This document shows, piece by piece, positions 5,327 through 18,322 of a DNA stretch of 64,000 nt. A program made the position numbers and the translations under genes. Each line of letters begins with the position of its first letter. Positions within the stretch are counted from its first letter, which is position 1. Below the pieces are notes generated by a model, which had not been told where the DNA came from, did not search any database, and worked only from the letters and a program-made list of their open reading frames with translations. The DNA is from an uncultured delta proteobacterium (GTDB lineage: Bacteria; Myxococcota_A; Polyangia; Polyangiales; Polyangiaceae): positions 128,001 through 192,000 of the forward strand of contig CAVQUB010000008.1 in the NCBI GenBank assembly GCA_963716725.1, in the 5' to 3' direction.

Positions 5327-8272
<2,946 letters not shown>

Positions 8273-8276
<4 letters not shown>

Positions 8277-10804: not shown

Positions 10805-12157
10805 TCACCAGCGCTGGCCCGCGGGCGCGCCTTTGAGCGGTGTCAGGCCCGGGATCGGGAGGTTCGGGATAGCCGCCGAGAGCCGATCGTAGAGCTCCTT
10901 CATGGCGGTGAAGCGCTCCGGATCCGTCTTGGAGAGATCGTTCTCTTCCTTCGGATCCTTGACGACGTCGAAGAGCAGCCACTCCACGCCGTCGCCCATC
11001 TCGATGATCTTCCAGTTGTCGTCGATGACGGCGCGGCGGCGGTCCATGATGTCGCAGCGTGTGAGCTCGGCCACGACCGGTCGAAGCTCGGGCTGCGCGC
11101 CGAGCACCTCTGGCAACAGGCTCTTGCCGCGGTACGGCGGATCGTGCGGCACGCCCATCAAATCCGCGAAGGTGGGCGCGAGATCGATGTGGCCGCGCGG
11201 CAGCTCGATGCGGCGCGGCTCCGCGCCGGGCACGTGAATGATCAGCGGCACGCGCACCAGGCTCTCCCACACGTCGTAGGCGTGGCGGAAGCGTCCGCGT
11301 TCACCGAAGCCCTCGCCGTGATCCGCCGAGATCACGATGGCGGTGTCCTTGCCCCAGGGCTGCTTCTGCACCCAGTCCACCAGATCGCCGACCCACTTGT
11401 CGGTGTAGTGGACCTCGTTGTCGTAGAGCGCGCGGATGTCGAGGCCCCAGTCGGGGTGGTCCTTGTGTTGGAAGTACGTGTAGTGCGGATCGAGGAAGTG
11501 GTAGTACGCGAAGAAGCGCTTGCCGTTCTCTTGGCTCACGTTCTTCGGTACCGACAGCATGCTCTTGGCGAGCTTGTTCAGTGCCTCGCTGGTGACGTTC
11601 TCGACGCCTTTGACGTCCAGCTCGGTGCCGGGCAACAGGCGGTAGTCGTCGAAGCCCTGGTTCAGGCCCATCACGGGCTTGAAATAGCCGTGGCCGTGCC
11701 CTGACAGCGTGCGGTGCCCACGCTTTTGGGCGCGCTCGCCGAAGAAGAGGTTGTCGGGTCCCCACAGCGTGAAGAAGAACCCGTCGCGCTGCATCTCGCT
11801 GGGGTACTTGCCCACCAGCGCGGGCGCGACGCTGTTCGCGGTGTAGCTCGAGATCGAGTAGCCGCGGGGGTAGAGCGTGCTCTTCTTGGCGAAGGCGTCG
11901 AGCCACGGCGCGATGGGTCGCTCGTAGCCGGTCCAGGGCATGTCCCAGCGCAGGCTGTCGATCAGGATGAACAGCACGTTGAAGGGCGGGCGCACCTTGG
12001 GCGCCGCAACCTCCGGCACGAGCTTTGGTCCCACGGCGGCGCTCGGCGGCGGCCCCGGCGGGGCGACCTCGAGCCCGGTCTCGTGGGGCGGCGTGCTCGC
12101 GCCTTTGGAGCAGCCGACGAGGGCAGCGAGCAGGGTCAAGCTGGCGAGGCGGCGCAC
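10805..12157 (-). CDS. Sulfatase/alkaline phosphatase superfamily lipoprotein
   Basis: Lipobox LVGC; NVLFILIDSLRWD, HFLDPH, YDNEV, ISADHGEGFGE, RVPLII, IDLAPT, DPKEENDL. Confidence 0.9.
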   Translation of the reverse strand: MRRLASLTLLAALVGCSKGASTPPHETGLEVAPPGPPPSAAVGPKLVPEVAAPKVRPPFNVLFILIDSLRWDMPWTGYERPIAPWLDAFAKKSTLYPRGYSISSYTANSVAPALVGKYPSEMQRDGFFFTLWGPDNLFFGERAQKRGHRTLSGHGHGYFKPVMGLNQGFDDYRLLPGTELDVKGVENVTSEALNKLAKSMLSVPKNVSQENGKRFFAYYHFLDPHYTYFQHKDHPDWGLDIRALYDNEVHYTDKWVGDLVDWVQKQPWGKDTAIVISADHGEGFGERGRFRHAYDVWESLVRVPLIIHVPGAEPRRIELPRGHIDLAPTFADLMGVPHDPPYRGKSLLPEVLGAQPELRPVVAELTRCDIMDRRRAVIDDNWKIIEMGDGVEWLLFDVVKDPKEENDLSKTDPERFTAMKELYDRLSAAIPNLPIPGLTPLKGAPAGQRW

Positions 12158-12207
12158 GGGAGGGGAATTGTGACCCGGCCCGCGCGCGGGGCGCCAGGTT
12201 TTGGGGG

Positions 12208-12921
12208 TCAGACGCGGCTCGCGAGTGTCGCGCGCTCGATCCCCGCCTTGGCTTCGCCTGCTTCTTTCAAGAAGTCGAAGGTGCGCTTGATGATCTCAGA
12301 TGCCCCCTGCTCCTCGTCGCGCAGGTCGTCCATCCGCCGCTTGGTCTCCGCGCCCCGGTGACTCGCCTCCGTGCTGGCGATCTCCGCGCGCTTGCCCGCG
12401 GCGTTGGCGCTAGCGGCCCAGAGTTCCGTGCCGCCTTCAGCGCCCGTACCCGCTCCCCTGAAGGCCATGGCCAGTCCGTTGGCGCGATCCGCGGACGTCT
12501 GAGCGATCTCCTGCGCTCGGTTCGCGGCTTCTTTCGCTGCCTTCTCGGTCGCGTCGTTCGCGGCCTTCCCGGCGGCGTCGGCTCGCGCGGACGCTCCGGC
12601 GCTTCCAATCGTCACGGCTCCCGCCGCGACCTGCAGCCCGCCCGAGGCGATCTTGCCGTAGGCAGCCCGTGTGGCTGCCTCGAGCACATGCTTGGCCTGC
12701 TCGCGCAGCTTCGCGACCTGCTGACCCTCGAAAGACCGCAGTCGGTCCTCTTCCGAGTGGCGCATTTCGCGCGCGTTCGCGCGTTTGTCGTGACCATGCT
12801 TCAGCATCATTGCCGCGACTTGCGCGTTCACGTCTCCGCCGAGTTCGGCGGCCAGAGCCGCCTCCGACTGCCAGATCATCATGCTGCTCGAACCCGAGTT
12901 GTTCACACCGTTGGTCGACAT
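12208..12921 (-). CDS. Putative T3SS minor translocator (SctB/YopD/SseD-like)
   Basis: Ala-rich coiled-coil protein with one central hydrophobic stretch (IASGGLQVAAGAVTIGSAG); directly downstream of the SctE-like gene; mainly a context call. Confidence 0.55.
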   Translation of the reverse strand: MSTNGVNNSGSSSMMIWQSEAALAAELGGDVNAQVAAMMLKHGHDKRANAREMRHSEEDRLRSFEGQQVAKLREQAKHVLEAATRAAYGKIASGGLQVAAGAVTIGSAGASARADAAGKAANDATEKAAKEAANRAQEIAQTSADRANGLAMAFRGAGTGAEGGTELWAASANAAGKRAEIASTEASHRGAETKRRMDDLRDEEQGASEIIKRTFDFLKEAGEAKAGIERATLASRV

Positions 12922-12949
12922 TTGGCTTGTTCCCTTCGAACTTGGTTGT

Positions 12950-14044
12950 TCATGCGCGCAGGATTAGGGCGTCGAAGGTGGCGGCCTGGATTTGGACGAC
13001 ACCGTTCGAAAGCGTTCGGCTGCGGTTCTGGTTTTCTCCGTGATCTGCCATGTCGACGAGCAGCTCATCGATCATGCGTTGGTAGGCGTGCATTCGGTTC
13101 AAGGTCTCTTGCAGGTTCGCGGCGTGCCGGAGCTCAGCCGCTTCCTGCTTGCCCGCATCGAGCATCTTGATGCCCTCGTTGATGTCGGCAGCGCCCTTCA
13201 AGATGCTTGCGCCCCCGGTGAGATAGCCAATCGCCGAATCTCCGCCAGCCGCTCCCGTAAGGGCCGTGGCCGCCAGGTTCATGCCCAGACGCACCCAGGG
13301 AGCTGCATCCTTCCCGCAGACTTCCTCCGCCAAATTCCATTTGCGATCGGCTTCGCACAGCATGATTGCTGCGACCGCCAGCACCGCGAGGGTGCCGCCG
13401 CTCCCAACCGCCGCCGCGATCGCGCCGGCCTTGGCCAGTAGGCCCACGACTTCCATGAAATCGGGGTTCTCGAGGCAGTTGTCCTTGAAGCTCTCGAAGA
13501 GCTCTTTCGCCTGCGATTTGGCCTCCGCCCAAGCCGCCTCGGCATCGGGGCCCTCGCTCGCGAGCGCGATGGCGAACTTCGCGTTGAACGCGGCGAGATC
13601 GGCCGAGAATGCCATCGCACCCTTGGTGAAGCCTTCGATCTTCTTCTCCAGGGACGGACTCATGGTCACGGTGGCCACCAGCTTGCCGACGACGCTGCCG
13701 ACGACGCTGCCGACCGACCCGGCGATCTTTCCGAGAAGCCCCTTTTTCTTTTTCTTCTTCTTCGCCTGCTGGGCCCGTCGGATCCCATCGGCGATCATCT
13801 TGAGGTACTTGTCGAGCTGTCCCTGCAGCTTCGTTCCAGCGCTGCGGAGCTGGAGCTCCGTGTGGCGGGTCGAGGTCTGGTTGATGCGCTCGAGGATCGC
13901 CATCATCTCCCCCAACGGGTCGGAGGGGTTCAAGGCATCGAGCGTCGGCGGCGGCAGGCCACCCGTTGGCCCCACCCCCGGCGCTGCCGTGGGGAACGGG
14001 GGGGTCGGCGTGGTGGCGCGAACGCCTGAGATGACGAGACTCAT
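12950..14044 (-). CDS. Putative T3SS major translocator (SctE/YopB/SseC-like)
   Basis: Pro-rich N-terminus, coiled coil, AKKKKKKKGLLGKI, hydrophobic GAIAAAVGSGGTLAVLAVAAIML, C-terminal coiled coil; ATGA overlap with chaperone. Confidence 0.7.
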   Translation of the reverse strand: MSLVISGVRATTPTPPFPTAAPGVGPTGGLPPPTLDALNPSDPLGEMMAILERINQTSTRHTELQLRSAGTKLQGQLDKYLKMIADGIRRAQQAKKKKKKKGLLGKIAGSVGSVVGSVVGKLVATVTMSPSLEKKIEGFTKGAMAFSADLAAFNAKFAIALASEGPDAEAAWAEAKSQAKELFESFKDNCLENPDFMEVVGLLAKAGAIAAAVGSGGTLAVLAVAAIMLCEADRKWNLAEEVCGKDAAPWVRLGMNLAATALTGAAGGDSAIGYLTGGASILKGAADINEGIKMLDAGKQEAAELRHAANLQETLNRMHAYQRMIDELLVDMADHGENQNRSRTLSNGVVQIQAATFDALILRA

Positions 14045-14442
14045 GATGCGTTCCTTTCGGCGGCGATCGCACTCAGCAGGACGGCGTCGTCCGCCAGGGA
14101 CTCGGCTTCGTCCAGCTCTTCGTCGACCTCCACGGAGTGCCCAAGGTGTCGGAGAGCCCGGGCGCGCCCGAGGTGACACCACCCTGATTCCGGCACCAGG
14201 GCACTCCCAATCAGGTAGCGCGCCGCCGCCATCGGCCAGTCTTCGCTACGCTCGCGGCTCACACCGAGCCCGATCCAAGCGCGCTCGTCGCCGGGTGCGA
14301 GCAACGCGAGCAATCCGAAGAAGCGCTCAGCAGATCTGGGGTCGTCGTTCTCGAGGGCTTCGTAGGCGCTTGCGTAGACGCGCTCTGCGAGGATCGACAG
14401 CGAAACCGGCGAACGTAGCGTGATCGGCAGTCCGGCGTGCAT
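14041..14442 (-). CDS. TPR class II translocator chaperone (SycD/LcrH-like)
   Basis: 133 aa acidic TPR protein: VYASAYEAL...AERFFGLLALLAPGDERAWIGLGVSRE...AAARY. Confidence 0.75.
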   Translation of the reverse strand: MHAGLPITLRSPVSLSILAERVYASAYEALENDDPRSAERFFGLLALLAPGDERAWIGLGVSRERSEDWPMAAARYLIGSALVPESGWCHLGRARALRHLGHSVEVDEELDEAESLADDAVLLSAIAAERNAS

Positions 14443-14445
14443 GGC

Positions 14446-15045
14446 TCACCTCCCGACGTTTGCGGCGATGGCGTCGGTGCCCTTGTTCAGGGCGGAGATG
14501 AGGTTCGTCGAGAGCTGGATCGCGGTCTGGCGTGCCGACATGGTCGACTGCAAGCCGATCATCTCGAGCTGGGCGCTCGACTCGAGCTGCTTCATCATGT
14601 TGCCGACGTACTCTCTCGAGGCTCCAACCTCGGCGGTGTAGTGGAGGCCGTCGGCGATGAACATGATCTGGCCCTTTTCGCTCAGGTCCTTCTCCAGTTG
14701 CGCGCCCAGCTTCGGGTCGTACGATTTGACCTCCTCAATCGCCGCCTTGATGTTCTTCTCGTAGTCGGCGTCGTCCTTGCCGACCTCGTGTTTCGTTCCC
14801 ACGAGCTTCTTGTTCCCTTTGTCGTCGTCCAACTTGTCCAGCTCGTTCTGGATCTTCATCAGGGCCTTGCGGACACCCTCGATGTTCTTCTGCTTCTGAA
14901 ACACACCGTTGATCTGGTCGTCGAGGCTCGAGAGGCGCGCCGAGAGGTACATCATCATTCCCTCAGCGGTGAGCGCGTTGGGGTTGGCTGACTCGAGCAG
15001 GCTGGGAGCAGTCGTGGTGGGCATGGCTGGGTTGATCTGGGGCAT
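14446..15045 (-). CDS. Putative T3SS filament/tip protein (Bsp22/EspA-like)
   Basis: C-terminus AQLEMIGLQSTMSARQTAIQLSTNLISALNKGTDAIAANV; N-terminal coiled coil RLSSLDDQI. Confidence 0.65.
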   Translation of the reverse strand: MPQINPAMPTTTAPSLLESANPNALTAEGMMMYLSARLSSLDDQINGVFQKQKNIEGVRKALMKIQNELDKLDDDKGNKKLVGTKHEVGKDDADYEKNIKAAIEEVKSYDPKLGAQLEKDLSEKGQIMFIADGLHYTAEVGASREYVGNMMKQLESSAQLEMIGLQSTMSARQTAIQLSTNLISALNKGTDAIAANVGR

Positions 15046-15073
15046 TGGGTCTTCTCCTATTGGTTGATGTGGT

Positions 15074-15298
15074 TCAGGCGCGGATTGCGCCGAGTGGCTG
15101 GGGGTTGCTCGCGGAGTGCCGAGGGAGGCAGGCTGCTTCGAGGTCGTCGAGGAGACCCGGGTCGGCGCAGACCAGTGTTCCGACGTCGAGCTCCGCGAAG
15201 GCGGCGCGCACTTGGGACCAGGTTTGGTTTTGTTCGGCCAGGGTCGCCGCGCATTCGTCGAGGGTGTTCTGGATCTCGCGAGTGAAGTCGTCCGTCAT
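15074..15298 (-). CDS. Small acidic hypothetical protein (74 aa), first gene of the translocon-like cassette
   Basis: MTDDFTREIQNTLDEC...; GGAG RBS; 28 nt gap to next gene. Confidence 0.6.
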   Translation of the reverse strand: MTDDFTREIQNTLDECAATLAEQNQTWSQVRAAFAELDVGTLVCADPGLLDDLEAACLPRHSASNPQPLGAIRA

Positions 15299-15402
15299 TG
15301 GTTTCTCCGTTCGGCACTCCCTCGGCCCGCCCACCGCCCCAGTTGCGCCGTTTTTCTCCGACTCGCCCTCCGCCTCCCTTTCCGGCTATGCTTGCCCTTC
15401 CG

Positions 15403-15888
15403 ATGCGTCGCCCGACCCTCGCCTGGGCCCTCGCCTTTGCCCTCGTCGCTGCTGGTGGCGTTGCCCTGACCGGCAGCGACGTGGAGGCGCAGCCCAAGAA
15501 GGGCCAGAAGGTCAAGAAGGTCTGGAAGAACGGCAAGCTGGTGCCGGCGGAAGAACCGCCGGACGAGGCCGCCGCCAAGGACGAGCCCAAGCTCGGCGCC
15601 AAAGACGCCAAGGAACCCAAGGCCGAGGGGGCCAAGGAGTCCAAGACGGGTGGCGACAAGCCGAAGACCACGACGGGGGCGCCGTCCGTGCTCGAGACCA
15701 AGAGCGAGGGTGACGGCGGCGTGAAGACCTACAAGTTCGGACCGGTCGAGGTCGAGGGACGCCTCAAGTCGCCTCAGGTCGTCTACTTCATGCGCCGTGT
15801 CCGCGCCGAGTTCGCGGCCGGCGCCCTCGGGCACCGCTCGTTCATGCGGGAGCTCAGTGATACCCGTCGAAGCCCTGCCGTGAAGTGA
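15403..15888 (+). CDS. Secreted GltF/CglF-like gliding-motility protein
   Basis: Signal peptide, Lys-rich linker, C-terminal YKFGPVEVEGRLKSPQVVYFMRR...F...RSFMREL; upstream of GltG-like gene. Confidence 0.6.
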   Translation: MRRPTLAWALAFALVAAGGVALTGSDVEAQPKKGQKVKKVWKNGKLVPAEEPPDEAAAKDEPKLGAKDAKEPKAEGAKESKTGGDKPKTTTGAPSVLETKSEGDGGVKTYKFGPVEVEGRLKSPQVVYFMRRVRAEFAAGALGHRSFMRELSDTRRSPAVK

Positions 15889-15891
15889 GAG

Positions 15892-17307
15892 TTGACGATG
15901 GCCCTACCTGTTGCGCTTCCGATCGTCCTTCGTACCGCCGCCGTCTGGGGCACCACCGTGATCGCCATGCGTCAGCTCGGAGGCGGTGAGTCCTTCGCCT
16001 TCGGTGACTTCAAAGAAGCGTCACTGCCCAAGCCCGACGGCAGCCCGATGCCCGACGTGCCCGTGCGCGCGGTGGGGACGGGCTGGGAACTCGACGCGCG
16101 GGGCGCGACCGGAGGCGTGGTCTTTCTGCGCGGTCGTCAAGAGAACGCCGCCGACCTTGGTCGTGGCGGCGCCCCGGTTCCGATCGTCGCTGGCGACTTC
16201 GGAGTCGTTCAATACGGCCCGACCTTCAGCGTCTTCTTCCAGTTTGCCAACGTACCGCCGCCGATTCGTGATCGGATACGCGCGGAATGGGGGCTGATCT
16301 TCGCCTTCATCTTCTCGCTGGTGGCGATCTGCGGCGGGCTCGCCATGGTCTGGGCCATCACCACACCTCCGGCCATTCCGAAGCCCCTCGAGCTGACCAG
16401 CGCGGCAGAGCTCGCGGTTCAGTTCAACTTGAAAGACGAGCCCGTCGAGCCCGAGAAGACCACCGGCAAAGATCAAGACTCGGACAAGGGTCAAGGCATC
16501 AAGGATCCCGGCGCCAAAGACAAGAAGGACATGGGCGGCGGCAAGAAGATCAAGGGCGCGGAAGGTCAGCTGGGCAAGCAAGGCCTGGCCGACAAGACCG
16601 AGCTGAAGGGCGAGATCCGCAACGGCCTTGGTGGCATGTCCGAGGTGCTCAACAGCGAGGTGGGTGACGAGGTGCGCAAGACCCTCGGCACCATCAGCTC
16701 CGTCGCCGACGCGCTCGGCGGGTTGCGCTCGGACAACATCGTGCTCGGTCGGGGCACGGGCACCGGCTTGAAGGGTTCGGGAGCGGGTGGCGGCGGTGAC
16801 GGCGAAGGCGTGCCCTTCGGTTCGGGAACGCTCGACACGGGTTGGGGTCCTGGCAAGGGTGGTGGCTTCGGATCGGGCAGCGGCGGACCAGGAGGCCGGG
16901 GTCTGGGAGGCTACGGCAAGGGCGGTAAGGGCGGCGGCGACGGCTCGGGTTCTGGCTCGGGCTCGGGACCGGGTGAAAAGAAGGTCGAAGGCAAGGACGT
17001 GCCGAAGCCGGGACAGGGGCTGACGCCGGCTCAGATCTCCCGCGTGGTGATGTCGCGCTACGGCGCGTTCCGCGCCTGTTACGAGTCCGCGGCGTCGTCG
17101 AACCCCAACATGCAAGGCAGCGTCGGCATCTCGTGGAGCATCTCCGCCGGCGGTTCGGTCGCGGGCGCGAGCGTCGGCGGCTCGTCGCTGGGCAATCCCC
17201 GCGTCGAGGGCTGCATCGTGCGTCAGTTCAGCCGGTTGAGCTTCCCCTCCGCGGACAAGCCCACGAACGCTAGCTGGACGTTCAGCTTCAAACCCAGCAA
17301 GAAGTGA
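15892..17307 (+). CDS. AgmX/PglI C-terminal (TonB-C-like) domain protein, GltG-like
   Basis: Cytoplasmic N domain, one TM helix, Gly-rich linker, ISRVV...FRACYE...NP.MQG.V...SSLGNPRVEGCI...FP. Confidence 0.85.
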   Translation: MTMALPVALPIVLRTAAVWGTTVIAMRQLGGGESFAFGDFKEASLPKPDGSPMPDVPVRAVGTGWELDARGATGGVVFLRGRQENAADLGRGGAPVPIVAGDFGVVQYGPTFSVFFQFANVPPPIRDRIRAEWGLIFAFIFSLVAICGGLAMVWAITTPPAIPKPLELTSAAELAVQFNLKDEPVEPEKTTGKDQDSDKGQGIKDPGAKDKKDMGGGKKIKGAEGQLGKQGLADKTELKGEIRNGLGGMSEVLNSEVGDEVRKTLGTISSVADALGGLRSDNIVLGRGTGTGLKGSGAGGGGDGEGVPFGSGTLDTGWGPGKGGGFGSGSGGPGGRGLGGYGKGGKGGGDGSGSGSGSGPGEKKVEGKDVPKPGQGLTPAQISRVVMSRYGAFRACYESAASSNPNMQGSVGISWSISAGGSVAGASVGGSSLGNPRVEGCIVRQFSRLSFPSADKPTNASWTFSFKPSKK

Positions 17308-17395
17308 GACGGTGCATCCGGCGTCGGGCGCGAGTTTGAGCGCTGGCACGCGCGTGGCATACTTCGAGACCAAGCTCTTCATAGGGGTCCGAAAA

Positions 17396-18322
17396 ATGCC
17401 GAAAACATCGCTCCTCGTGTCCCGTGCTCTGGGGTCACTCGCCCCCGGCCGTTGGGGGTCCTTGCCCTCGCGTGTTGCTCTCGCTGGCGTGGTGGCCCTC
17501 TTCGCCGTCGGCTGCGGTGAAGAAGAAGAACGCCGCACGCTCGAGCCCATCCAGCTCGGCATGACCAAGGGCATGGCCGCCATCTACGAGGGCGACGAGA
17601 TGAGCCTCTTCGAGGTGAAGAAGGCCGTCGCCTTCCCGATCCGAGCTCCCTCCGCCGGCGAGCAGGCCGCCCTCAACGGCAGCCCCGTCGCACCGTATCC
17701 GAGCAAGCCCTGGCTGCTGAGCAGCGACCTCAAGGTGCAGGTGAGCTGGACGCTGACGAACCTGGATGAAGAGACCCACAACGTCGAGCTGCTCATCGAT
17801 CCGTGGAACGAGTTCGGGCGCTACTGGCCGGGCATCGCCGTGACCGACGTTGAACGGAACGACCAGATGCCGAACCTCTCCGGGATCGACATCTTGATGG
17901 AGGTGCCGGGAACGAAGAGCGGTCGCCCCTCGCGAAAGCACGGGCTCTTCACCACCGAAGACATGAAAGAGCTCGGGATCGACTTCGCGACTGCGATGAA
18001 CATCCTGCTCAACGCCCCGCCACCGGATCCGACCATCGAGGCGGAAGACAACCCCACGGTGGGGCTGATCAACCACGCCTTCGCCGTCGAGAACCGGTCG
18101 TACAAGGATCTGTACATCAAGCAGTACATCCCCCAGACCATCGCGGGGCTCACCGGTTTCGACATCGGTCTTCGGACCTACGAAGAGGCCAACGTCGCCA
18201 TCGAGATCTTGGTCGAGGTGGTCGACACGGGCAGCGGCAAGGTGGTTCAGCGGGACGAGAAAGACCCAGTGATGCCCGAGCCCACGACCTTCGTCACGGC
18301 GGGCAACGGCCCCGGCTACTGA
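17396..18322 (+). CDS. Hypothetical lipoprotein
   Basis: Lipobox FAVGC; acidic globular sequence, high GC3; start uncertain. Confidence 0.7.
   Translation: MPKTSLLVSRALGSLAPGRWGSLPSRVALAGVVALFAVGCGEEEERRTLEPIQLGMTKGMAAIYEGDEMSLFEVKKAVAFPIRAPSAGEQAALNGSPVAPYPSKPWLLSSDLKVQVSWTLTNLDEETHNVELLIDPWNEFGRYWPGIAVTDVERNDQMPNLSGIDILMEVPGTKSGRPSRKHGLFTTEDMKELGIDFATAMNILLNAPPPDPTIEAEDNPTVGLINHAFAVENRSYKDLYIKQYIPQTIAGLTGFDIGLRTYEEANVAIEILVEVVDTGSGKVVQRDEKDPVMPEPTTFVTAGNGPGY

Follow-up and report, generated by a model that had tools for sequence, protein, structure and literature searches.

In Salmonella pathogenicity island 2 (SPI-2; sseA-sseB-sscA-sseC-sseD) and in the EspA/EspD/EspB locus of enteropathogenic Escherichia coli (EPEC), with its chaperones CesAB and CesD, the translocon genes of the T3SS (type III secretion system) follow the order chaperone, filament-type protein, class II chaperone, SctE and SctB. 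For the Bordetella bsc locus (Bsp22, Btc22, BcrH1, BopD, BopB, BcrH2), passages of PMC7498569 describe a single block that unites a self-polymerising tip filament and the small chaperone dedicated to it with a class II chaperone and a pair of pore proteins. Among myxobacteria, the 'Myxo' non-flagellar T3SS (NF-T3SS) of Abby & Rocha 2012 is presented in parts of that paper (PMC3459982) as clustered, confined to the Cystobacterineae and devoid of secretin, SctF, tip protein and translocon, the authors allowing that tip or translocon homologues may have been missed and that the translocon perhaps came later than the secretin; the same parts record that an earlier annotation had treated the T3SS genes of Myxococcus xanthus as relics. 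The T3SS* cluster of M. xanthus (mxan_2434-2464) is likewise characterized in sections of PMC12075869 as lacking secretin, needle and translocon, and portions of a 2026 preprint place T3SS mainly in the class Myxococcia. Searches of an open-access full-text library turned up no paper on a translocon, or on a T3SS with dispersed genes, in this group. Here we analyze a stretch of 64,000 nucleotides (the window; positions 128,001 to 192,000 of contig CAVQUB010000008.1, assembly GCA_963716725.1) from an uncultured member of the Polyangiaceae, in which a first-pass annotation, made from the sequence alone, had pointed out a five-gene cassette resembling a type III translocon. The source genome (handle G000) comprises 7.89 Mb in 35 contigs and is 84% complete and 3.9% contaminated; the cassette lies on its 424-kb contig C8.

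Four of the five cassette proteins are homologous to tip-position, chaperone and translocator proteins of T3SS, their synteny is conserved, their position is unlinked and SctJ co-occurs with them. In our judgment the cassette is probably a type III tip/filament and pore operon served by a T3SS that is encoded elsewhere in the genome. Its parts are recognizable, but the literature found describes neither the lineage nor the dispersed layout of the genes, nor the apparent lack of needle and secretin, nor the family of the small acidic protein p74 and the unannotated family of the 199-residue protein p199. Besides the gene order, the likeness to SPI-2 and EPEC includes the SseC Pfam family, matched by 4 of 14 relatives of the 364-residue cassette protein p364; those systems, however, are clustered pathogenicity islands with needle and secretin, and the p199 family has no Pfam EspA match among the families listed. 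The M. xanthus T3SS* and the 'Myxo' NF-T3SS, as portrayed in the sections cited (PMC12075869, PMC3459982), are also myxobacterial non-flagellar systems without recognizable secretin or SctF, and the annotation had also cited T3SS* as needle-less; they are nevertheless clustered and without tip or translocon, whereas here the core genes are dispersed and tip-position and translocator genes are present. Judged by the passages available on it, the Bordetella Bsp22/Btc22/BcrH1/BopD/BopB block is the closest published functional analogue. Unlike the locus described here, bsc has the needle BscF and a clustered apparatus, and the only sequence link is a match to the Btc22 family (E 4.2e-5) in a proteobacterial locus (L039, see below), Bsp22 being likened by description only. 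The T3SS of Chlamydiales share the division of core and translocator genes over several loci, according to parts of PMC3459982, but Chlamydia has about four multi-gene loci, as against seven core genes at seven loci here and pieces 0.7-2.6 Mb apart in the related genome G050.

Organization and synteny of the cassette

The five tightly packed minus-strand genes described in the annotation, with products of 74, 199, 133, 364 and 237 aa, are all present where it had placed them, and are referred to as p74, p199, p133, p364 and p237 (Table 1). Each open reading frame (ORF) begins with an ATG preceded by a purine-rich ribosome-binding stretch. The intergenic distances are 28, 3, -4 and 28 nt, followed by 50 nt between p237 and the next gene, a sulfatase; the annotation had listed 28, 0, 3, -4 and 28, of which the four true distances are right and the 0 is spurious, since five numbers were given for four junctions. 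The G+C content at third codon positions (GC3) of the five genes is 0.77-0.89 and matches that of neighboring genes, which, together with a gene order that recurs in related genomes, indicates that the five ORFs are real genes and not chance ORFs. Other details of the first description also hold, namely the acidity of p74 (pI 4.09), the alanine richness of p237 (23% Ala), the C-terminus of p199 (QLEMIGLQSTMSARQTAIQLSTNLI...IAANV), the string KKKGLLGKI of p364 followed by a hydrophobic Gly/Ala stretch, and the myxobacterium-like nature of the genome, the nearest homologues coming from metagenome-assembled genomes (MAGs) of Polyangiaceae or Myxococcales. The proposed lack of Sec signals agrees with a hydropathy scan, carried out with no dedicated signal-peptide predictor, in which all five proteins lack an N-terminal hydrophobic core (maximum Kyte-Doolittle value over 10 residues within the first 30 of at most 1.39). 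An informal look by eye at the N-termini for a PxLxxP-type chaperone-binding motif gave no clear instance. A consensus scan of positions 11900-16000 found no sigma-70-like promoter and no minus-strand terminator, the consensus being uninformative for this organism.

Conservation of the cassette was assessed through a scan of species-representative genomes with the p199 family, which returned 43 loci. In the 17 nearest of these (L008-L024), a tblastn search with proteins of the window identified p364 downstream of p199 in 17, p133 in 15 and p237 in 14, with all four of p199, p133, p364 and p237 in 13; in more distant myxobacterial-type loci the pair of p199 and p133, at the least, is retained. 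Immediately upstream of the p199 homologue, 24 related loci have a small acidic ORF of the p74 family, and 23 of these ORFs are represented in alignment A6. FlhA, SctN, SctR, SctJ, SctQ and FliR had no match in the fetched flanks (up to 10 kb) of the 31 loci L008-L038, and neither the window nor the whole of contig C8 contains sct or other export genes, as the annotation had concluded for the sequence it saw. The recurrence of the order, the p74-type ORF upstream and the lack of sct genes in the flanks thus indicate that the five-gene cassette is conserved and habitually stands alone.

A connection to clustered T3SS is provided by proteobacterial loci that match p199 through its C-terminal part: L039 (Methylothermaceae MAG), L042, L043 (Rhodospirillales MAG) and L046 (Terasakiella pusilla DSM 6293). 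L039, L043 and L046 also carry SctN, SctQ, SctR, SctT, SctJ or SctV, and in these three the order is a small ORF, a protein of ~180 aa that ends in the p199-type helix, a SycD/LcrH chaperone, an SctE-position protein of 365-496 aa and SctB, the chaperone and SctB passing curated cut-offs; the NCBIfam SseD and SscA/SscB models match proteins of these intermediates as well. The small ORF upstream of the p199-like gene in L039 is the Btc22-family match mentioned above, and the ORF list together with a YscG match suggests that this locus probably has a separate needle gene beside a YscG-type chaperone. The modules of L039, L043 and L046 therefore share with the cassette the gene order and a profile-level homology of three proteins (p199, p364 and p237), but are surrounded by sctN, Q, R, T, J, D and V, and their small ORF is unrelated to p74. 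A pattern-based scan with A8, the proteobacterial p199-like set, returned 14 loci, with no Bordetella record among them.

Homology of the cassette proteins

Scanned directly against Pfam, the five proteins had no significant match, and the sole real match in an NCBIfam scan was that of p133 to the SycD/LcrH model, below threshold. Since the window holds no family member at a curated threshold, the case must rest on relatives. An indexed protein collection contains 45 relatives of p199; those with a name derive from MAGs of Polyangiaceae or Myxococcales, and some relatives bear a precomputed label for the needle domain PF09392. In an alignment of 34 p199-like proteins (A1), the C-terminal block is almost invariant (LESSAQLEMIxLQSxMSARQTAIQLSTNLISAL...IAANIGR), and it remains nearly so over 140 cluster representatives (p199 and 139 others) drawn from a family of 1210 clusters (50% identity) at E <= 0.001 and 112 at E <= 1e-30. 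The comparison of A1 by hhalign with the set of proteins occupying the tip (SctA) position in proteobacterial T3SS clusters gave 98.2% (E 4.9e-14, 161 columns); judged by these profiles, p199 is homologous along its full length to the protein that takes the SctA (tip/filament) position in true T3SS clusters.

The assignment of p199 to a named family is a different matter. The annotation had seen in its C-terminus a likeness to EspA/Bsp22 filament proteins, for which no direct similarity was found: neither EspA (PF03433) nor LcrV matched p199, neither appears among the Pfam families listed for the 34 and the 140 relatives, and Bsp22 itself was not aligned. The needle model PF09392 does not match p199 and matches weakly in 2 of the 34 and 3 of the 140 relatives (E 4e-4 or weaker), and p199 is too long compared with the ~80-aa SctF. 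In a language-model Atlas, p199 sits among unnamed clusters, with an EspA label on 5 of 30 neighbor clusters (12% share) and an LcrV label (12%) on one. The AlphaFold2 (AF2) model of p199, of moderate confidence with a predicted local distance difference test (pLDDT) of 63.4, has helices at residues 27-70 and 137-197 with an insert between them. A VIA structure search with this model placed flagellins and FlgL-type junction proteins at the top (Z 10-11, under the caution line of ~13 for long-helix proteins) and also listed the Shigella rod/needle entry 6rwy_L (Z 9.3, rmsd 1.9, 72 of 73 residues). When a profile of the p199 C-terminus was run over all six-frame ORFs of the genome, p199 alone was found, with no paralogue and no separate needle-like protein. 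We read p199 as a putative axial, self-associating T3SS substrate in the SctA position, not filed under the EspA, LcrV or SctF families.

Two further observations concern the p199 family. The p199-like gene is tandemly duplicated in L042 (204 + 179 aa), L043 (221 + 182 aa), L046 (179 + 268 aa) and the myxobacterial L027 (two copies), the paralogues differing in the insert between the two conserved helices. In addition, a C-terminal helix of the p199 type (E-[LM]-[DE]-M-I-x-L-Q-S-x-M-S-x-R-Q...N-[IM]-G-[KR]) stands at the end of Gamma-, Zeta-, Alpha- and Desulfo-type MAG proteins with an apparent Sec signal at the N-terminus (L028, L031, L034, L035, L037, L040, L041 and L044), which are ~140-160 aa long except in L044, where the ORF as called has 393 aa, and it also ends 60-aa Bradyrhizobium peptides that carry a double-glycine-type leader (ELDRVCGG; L045, L049). 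These Sec and double-glycine proteins give weak PF09392 matches (E 5e-4 to 0.07), and outside T3SS the element looks like a needle-like helix carried by proteins that would leave the cell by other routes.

For the two translocator-like proteins, the evidence comes from profile comparisons and swapped controls. Two of the 15 relatives of p364 carry a precomputed SseC (PF04888) label; the four Pfam SseC matches in its family reach 4.3e-5 at best, and p364 itself has none at E <= 0.1. By hhalign, the p364 family (A2) matched the SctE-position set at 96.0% (E 4.5e-9, 172 columns), in an alignment that spans the Lys-rich/GxxGKI motif which the annotation had singled out as typical of SctE, and the SctB set at 12.8%. 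The SctE-position proteins used in this comparison are themselves weakly annotated, with one match to PRK15362 (3e-5). In p364 a Lys run is followed by GLLGKI, and hydrophobic segments lie at residues ~102-132 and ~195-234 (maximum Kyte-Doolittle values of 1.50 and 2.06) in a hydropathy scan. The p237 family (A3) matched the SctB set (A4) at 97.5% (E 6.3e-12, 156 columns) and the SctE-position set at 1.8%; A4 consists of four proteobacterial proteins, of which the three scanned all pass the curated SctB model NF038055. In the alignment of A3 with A4, a mildly hydrophobic Gly/Ala stretch of p237 (~89-112) faces the hydrophobic region of SctB, and p237 itself has no Pfam match and no NCBIfam SctB or SseD match at E <= 1. 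Because the swapped controls are low, an Ala-rich helical composition is not the cause of the translocator matches, and the comparisons support the assignment of p364 as SctE-like and of p237 as SctB-like.

The p133 protein matches TIGR02552 (LcrH_SycD) with E 3.6e-11 at 42.9 bits, below the curated cut-off of 104.8, and TPR_14, a tetratricopeptide repeat (TPR) family, with E 0.017. All 23 members of its family (p133 and 22 relatives) match TIGR02552 at E <= 0.001, the best with 5e-19 and none reported above the cut-off, and 11 of the 23 also match the SctY model. The p133 stop overlaps the p364 start by 4 nt, so that p133 lies directly upstream of the translocator genes, an adjacency that is kept in related loci. 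The resemblance of the TPR protein to SycD/LcrH, proposed in the annotation, is thereby sustained at sub-threshold level, and p133 is supported as a candidate divergent class II chaperone of the SycD/LcrH type.

The small protein p74 matched no Pfam or NCBIfam family. Its predicted complex with p199 scored 0.72, the best of three controls scoring 0.00, with at least 72% of contacts shared between runs and a partner pLDDT of at least 71; this mark is reached by 116 of 157 solved complexes and by 2 of 215 mismatched pairs, counts that hold roughly here given the use of custom alignments. In the predicted contacts, p74 residues 3-57 run along p199 residues 24-63 and 155-187, that is, along both long helices. 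Polymerising helices are covered in a like manner by the small chaperones that serve EspA and needle subunits, and the score of the p74-p199 pair may for this reason partly reflect likeness to solved complexes. The modeling nonetheless supports binding of p74 to p199, and we propose p74 as a new family and putative dedicated p199 chaperone.

Export genes in the genome and its relatives

The one FHIPEP gene in the genome is the flagellar FlhA, within a complete flagellar cluster at C13:233950-250498 (L001, L003) that comprises FlhF, FlhA, FlhB, FliR/Q/P/O/N/M/L, FlgE, FlgD and FliJ/I/H/G/F. Myxobacteria are usually described as non-flagellated. This complete cluster, and the fact that the best structural matches of p199 are flagellins and FlgL, could suggest that the cassette proteins leave the cell through the flagellar type III export gate. 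However, 26 of the 47 cassette carriers analyzed below gave no FliG match, among them the 97%-complete same-genus genome G111; G005 has the cassette and only the non-flagellar FHIPEP type; and p199 is neighbored by a chaperone and translocators of the injectisome type. Export through the flagellar gate is accordingly a very improbable account of the cassette.

The reading of the cassette as part of a non-flagellar T3SS finds a counterpart in a second set of genes (sctJ, N, Q, R, S, T and U), which occupy seven separate loci on six contigs, among unrelated genes (Table 1). The annotation had made its proposal dependent on a type III export apparatus in the genomes that carry the cassette, and non-flagellar type III genes are indeed found both in this genome and in its relatives. 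A second, non-flagellar SctV is present in all nine relatives examined, including both same-genus genomes (G001-G005, G033, G050, G060, G071 and G111; G003 and G033 are apparently two handles for the same genome, and the SctV of G001 reads as fragments). A 19.6-kb SctV region of the same-genus G033 has no counterpart at all in the present assembly, so that the absence of a second SctV from it fits a loss to the unassembled part of the genome. SctV, SctJ and SctN lie 0.2-2.6 Mb apart in the relatives, and the dispersal is plain in G050, where a single contig holds p199 (1.30 Mb), SctV (3.07 Mb), SctJ (3.77 Mb) and SctN (5.67 Mb). Since sct genes are scattered singly in Polyangiaceae, the cassette can be seen as one more dispersed piece of a single system.

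The SctV proteins of these relatives have a peculiarity of their own. In G002-G005, G033, G050, G060, G071 and G111 the FHIPEP match falls into two pieces (~1-402 and ~455-656), split by ~50 model positions inside one open frame of 664-1299 aa, a pattern that points to a changed linker region and, for some of the genomes, to a long extension.

Table 1. Cassette genes (positions in the window) and non-flagellar sct genes elsewhere in the genome (contig:positions).
Feature	Location	Strand	Description
p74, first gene	15074-15298	minus	74 aa, small acidic protein
p199	14446-15045	minus	199 aa, SctA-position protein
p133	14041-14442	minus	133 aa, candidate divergent SycD/LcrH-type TPR chaperone
p364	12950-14044	minus	364 aa, SctE-like putative major translocator
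p237, last gene	12208-12921	minus	237 aa, SctB-like putative minor translocator, Ala-rich
SctN	C9:190974-192548		non-flagellar
SctR	C13:468862-469605		with FliO-like gene
SctJ	C14:70890-71681		non-flagellar
SctQ	C7:135736-136233		non-flagellar
SctU	C6:80132-81115		non-flagellar
SctT	C6:29300-29941		non-flagellar
SctS	C33:55383-55595		non-flagellar

Distribution, transcription and assessment of the type III reading

The distribution of the cassette was analyzed in a sample of 121 Polyangiaceae genomes from 89 genera, using for SctJ the genome's own protein as query at E <= 1e-15. In this sample p199 was detected in 47 genomes (35 genera), SctJ in 77 and FliG in 50. The cassette carriers encountered were all MAGs. 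SctJ is present in 46 of the 47 p199 carriers, the exception being G122 (91% complete), versus 31 of the 74 non-carriers, and FliG is present in only 21 of the carriers. As a pattern, put to no statistical test, the distribution of the cassette nests in that of the non-flagellar system and ignores the flagellum. In a phylum-wide sample of 301 genomes, p199 was detected in 17, all belonging to the window's own order, and not in the other 59 families sampled.

The co-occurrence with SctJ bears directly on another explanation, namely that the cassette encodes a pore-forming or surface-helix module which does not use type III export and is released in some other way, for example by lysis, in vesicles or through another secretion system, with the TPR protein serving only as a holding chaperone and the likeness to translocators reflecting shared ancestry, not a common export route. 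The p199-type helix also occurs on Sec-signal proteins of ~140-160 aa and on 60-aa double-glycine Bradyrhizobium peptides, no needle or T3SS-type secretin was found, the cassette never adjoins sct genes in 31 myxobacterial-type loci, and the top Foldseek row for p199 is XaxB, a subunit of a binary alpha-pore-forming toxin (weak E of 0.087), all of which would be compatible with such a module. It would not, however, lead one to expect SctJ in nearly all carriers and fewer than half of the non-carriers, a gene order identical to that of true T3SS clusters, a specific match to the class II T3SS chaperone model in 23 of 23 p133 family members, or five proteins without an N-terminal hydrophobic signal. 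We regard this explanation as unlikely.

Near-identical DNA was detected in biofilter, wastewater, groundwater and sediment metagenomes (8 studies), and two metatranscriptome runs of one wastewater study yielded contigs over the cassette (X19, 14309-14656 and 14703-15037; X20, 14235-14476 and 14893-15112). Together these RNA-library contigs take in p199 and extend across its boundaries with p133 and p74; p364 and p237 are uncovered, a lack of cover that proves nothing, and a DNA run of the same study covers the whole 6.6-kb stretch. The contigs hint, weakly, at a joint transcription of p199 and its neighbors, and cannot rank expression. They are also relevant to the view that the cassette is a relic of an ancestral injectisome, no longer secreted or now internal to the cell. 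The dispersal of the sct set and the failure to find needle and secretin agree with decay, and the genes of the M. xanthus T3SS were themselves once annotated as relics, as parts of PMC3459982 relate. All five frames, however, are intact with ribosome-binding sites and ATG starts, the operon order is kept across 35 of the 89 sampled genera, the C-terminal block of p199 is nearly invariant over its 140 cluster representatives in a family of more than a thousand clusters, and RNA-library contigs cover p199. Decay into a relic is hence quite unlikely.

Several results nevertheless weigh against the interpretation of the cassette as a type III tip and translocon operon. No protein of the window reaches any curated family cut-off, p133 included, and p199, p364 and p237 are without a significant Pfam or NCBIfam match. 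Structural evidence is equally sparse: the AlphaFold model of p364 is unusable (pLDDT 42.5) and that of p199 of moderate confidence, a Foldseek search with the latter against the PDB returned no row at E <= 0.001, with IpaD fragments and XaxB only among the weak rows, its VIA Z of ~11 falls below the caution line, values under ~13 being common for long-helix proteins, and profiles A1, A2 and A8 run against PDB sequences matched no solved structure at E < 0.01. p237 has no strongly hydrophobic segment, as no 19-residue window reaches a Kyte-Doolittle value of 1.3. The candidacy of p74 as a Btc22 homologue was rejected, with 0.8% by hhalign against Btc22-like ORFs (0.2% for an unrelated control, A7 versus A10). 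On the side of the apparatus, no second SctV turned up in the present assembly, which is 84% complete, the SctF needle model PF09392 had no match at E <= 1 in the genome, and none of three secretin-domain genes lies above the TIGR02516 cut-off for SctC (best 123.8 bits versus 238.45). The C-terminal motif of p199 is not by itself diagnostic of type III export, since it also ends Sec and double-glycine proteins without T3SS context; the co-occurrence counts overstate independence, because the genomes of one family are kin; and the RNA-library contigs are no proof of transcription, as such libraries can contain DNA.

Proposed mechanism and implications

The annotation had proposed a divergent filament plus a pore-forming translocon, unlinked from export genes; the translocon-type homology and the unlinked position stand, on profile matches and on the lack of sct genes along the contig, and a direct likeness to EspA or Bsp22 was not found. 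In the mechanism that we consider, the five genes would form one operon. p74, as a small private chaperone, would shield in the cytoplasm the two helices through which p199 would polymerise, and p133 would keep the two hydrophobic translocators soluble. Once exported by the dispersed T3SS, p199 would polymerise as the axial tip/filament subunit, and p364 and p237 would insert as a pore into a target membrane, which may belong to a protist or other eukaryote, or to bacterial prey.

A broader proposal, which we put forward tentatively and hold to be rather doubtful, is that Polyangiales possess a working, genome-dispersed T3SS without recognizable SctF needle or dedicated secretin, which exports a p199 filament and a p364/p237 pore to breach protists or bacterial prey. 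If this were true, the cassette would be the first tip-and-translocon set in Myxococcota, and tip and translocators would be older than, or independent of, the acquisitions of needle and secretin, so that the proposed order of injectisome evolution would have to be revised. A functional system would also extend contact-dependent injection to an abundant soil and wastewater lineage, provide a natural test case for a T3SS that works without known needle or secretin, and demonstrate that detection tools based on gene clusters miss whole systems of scattered genes. The analysis defines two unannotated protein families, p199-like and p74-like.

Neighboring genes in the window

In related loci no tie to the cassette was seen for the flanking ORFs without Pfam family, although no systematic look was made. 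These large ORFs lie at 15892-17307 (+), 17312-18322 (+) and 5490-8276 (+), and include a Gly-rich protein of 471 aa, divergently transcribed from the cassette, and another protein of 928 aa.

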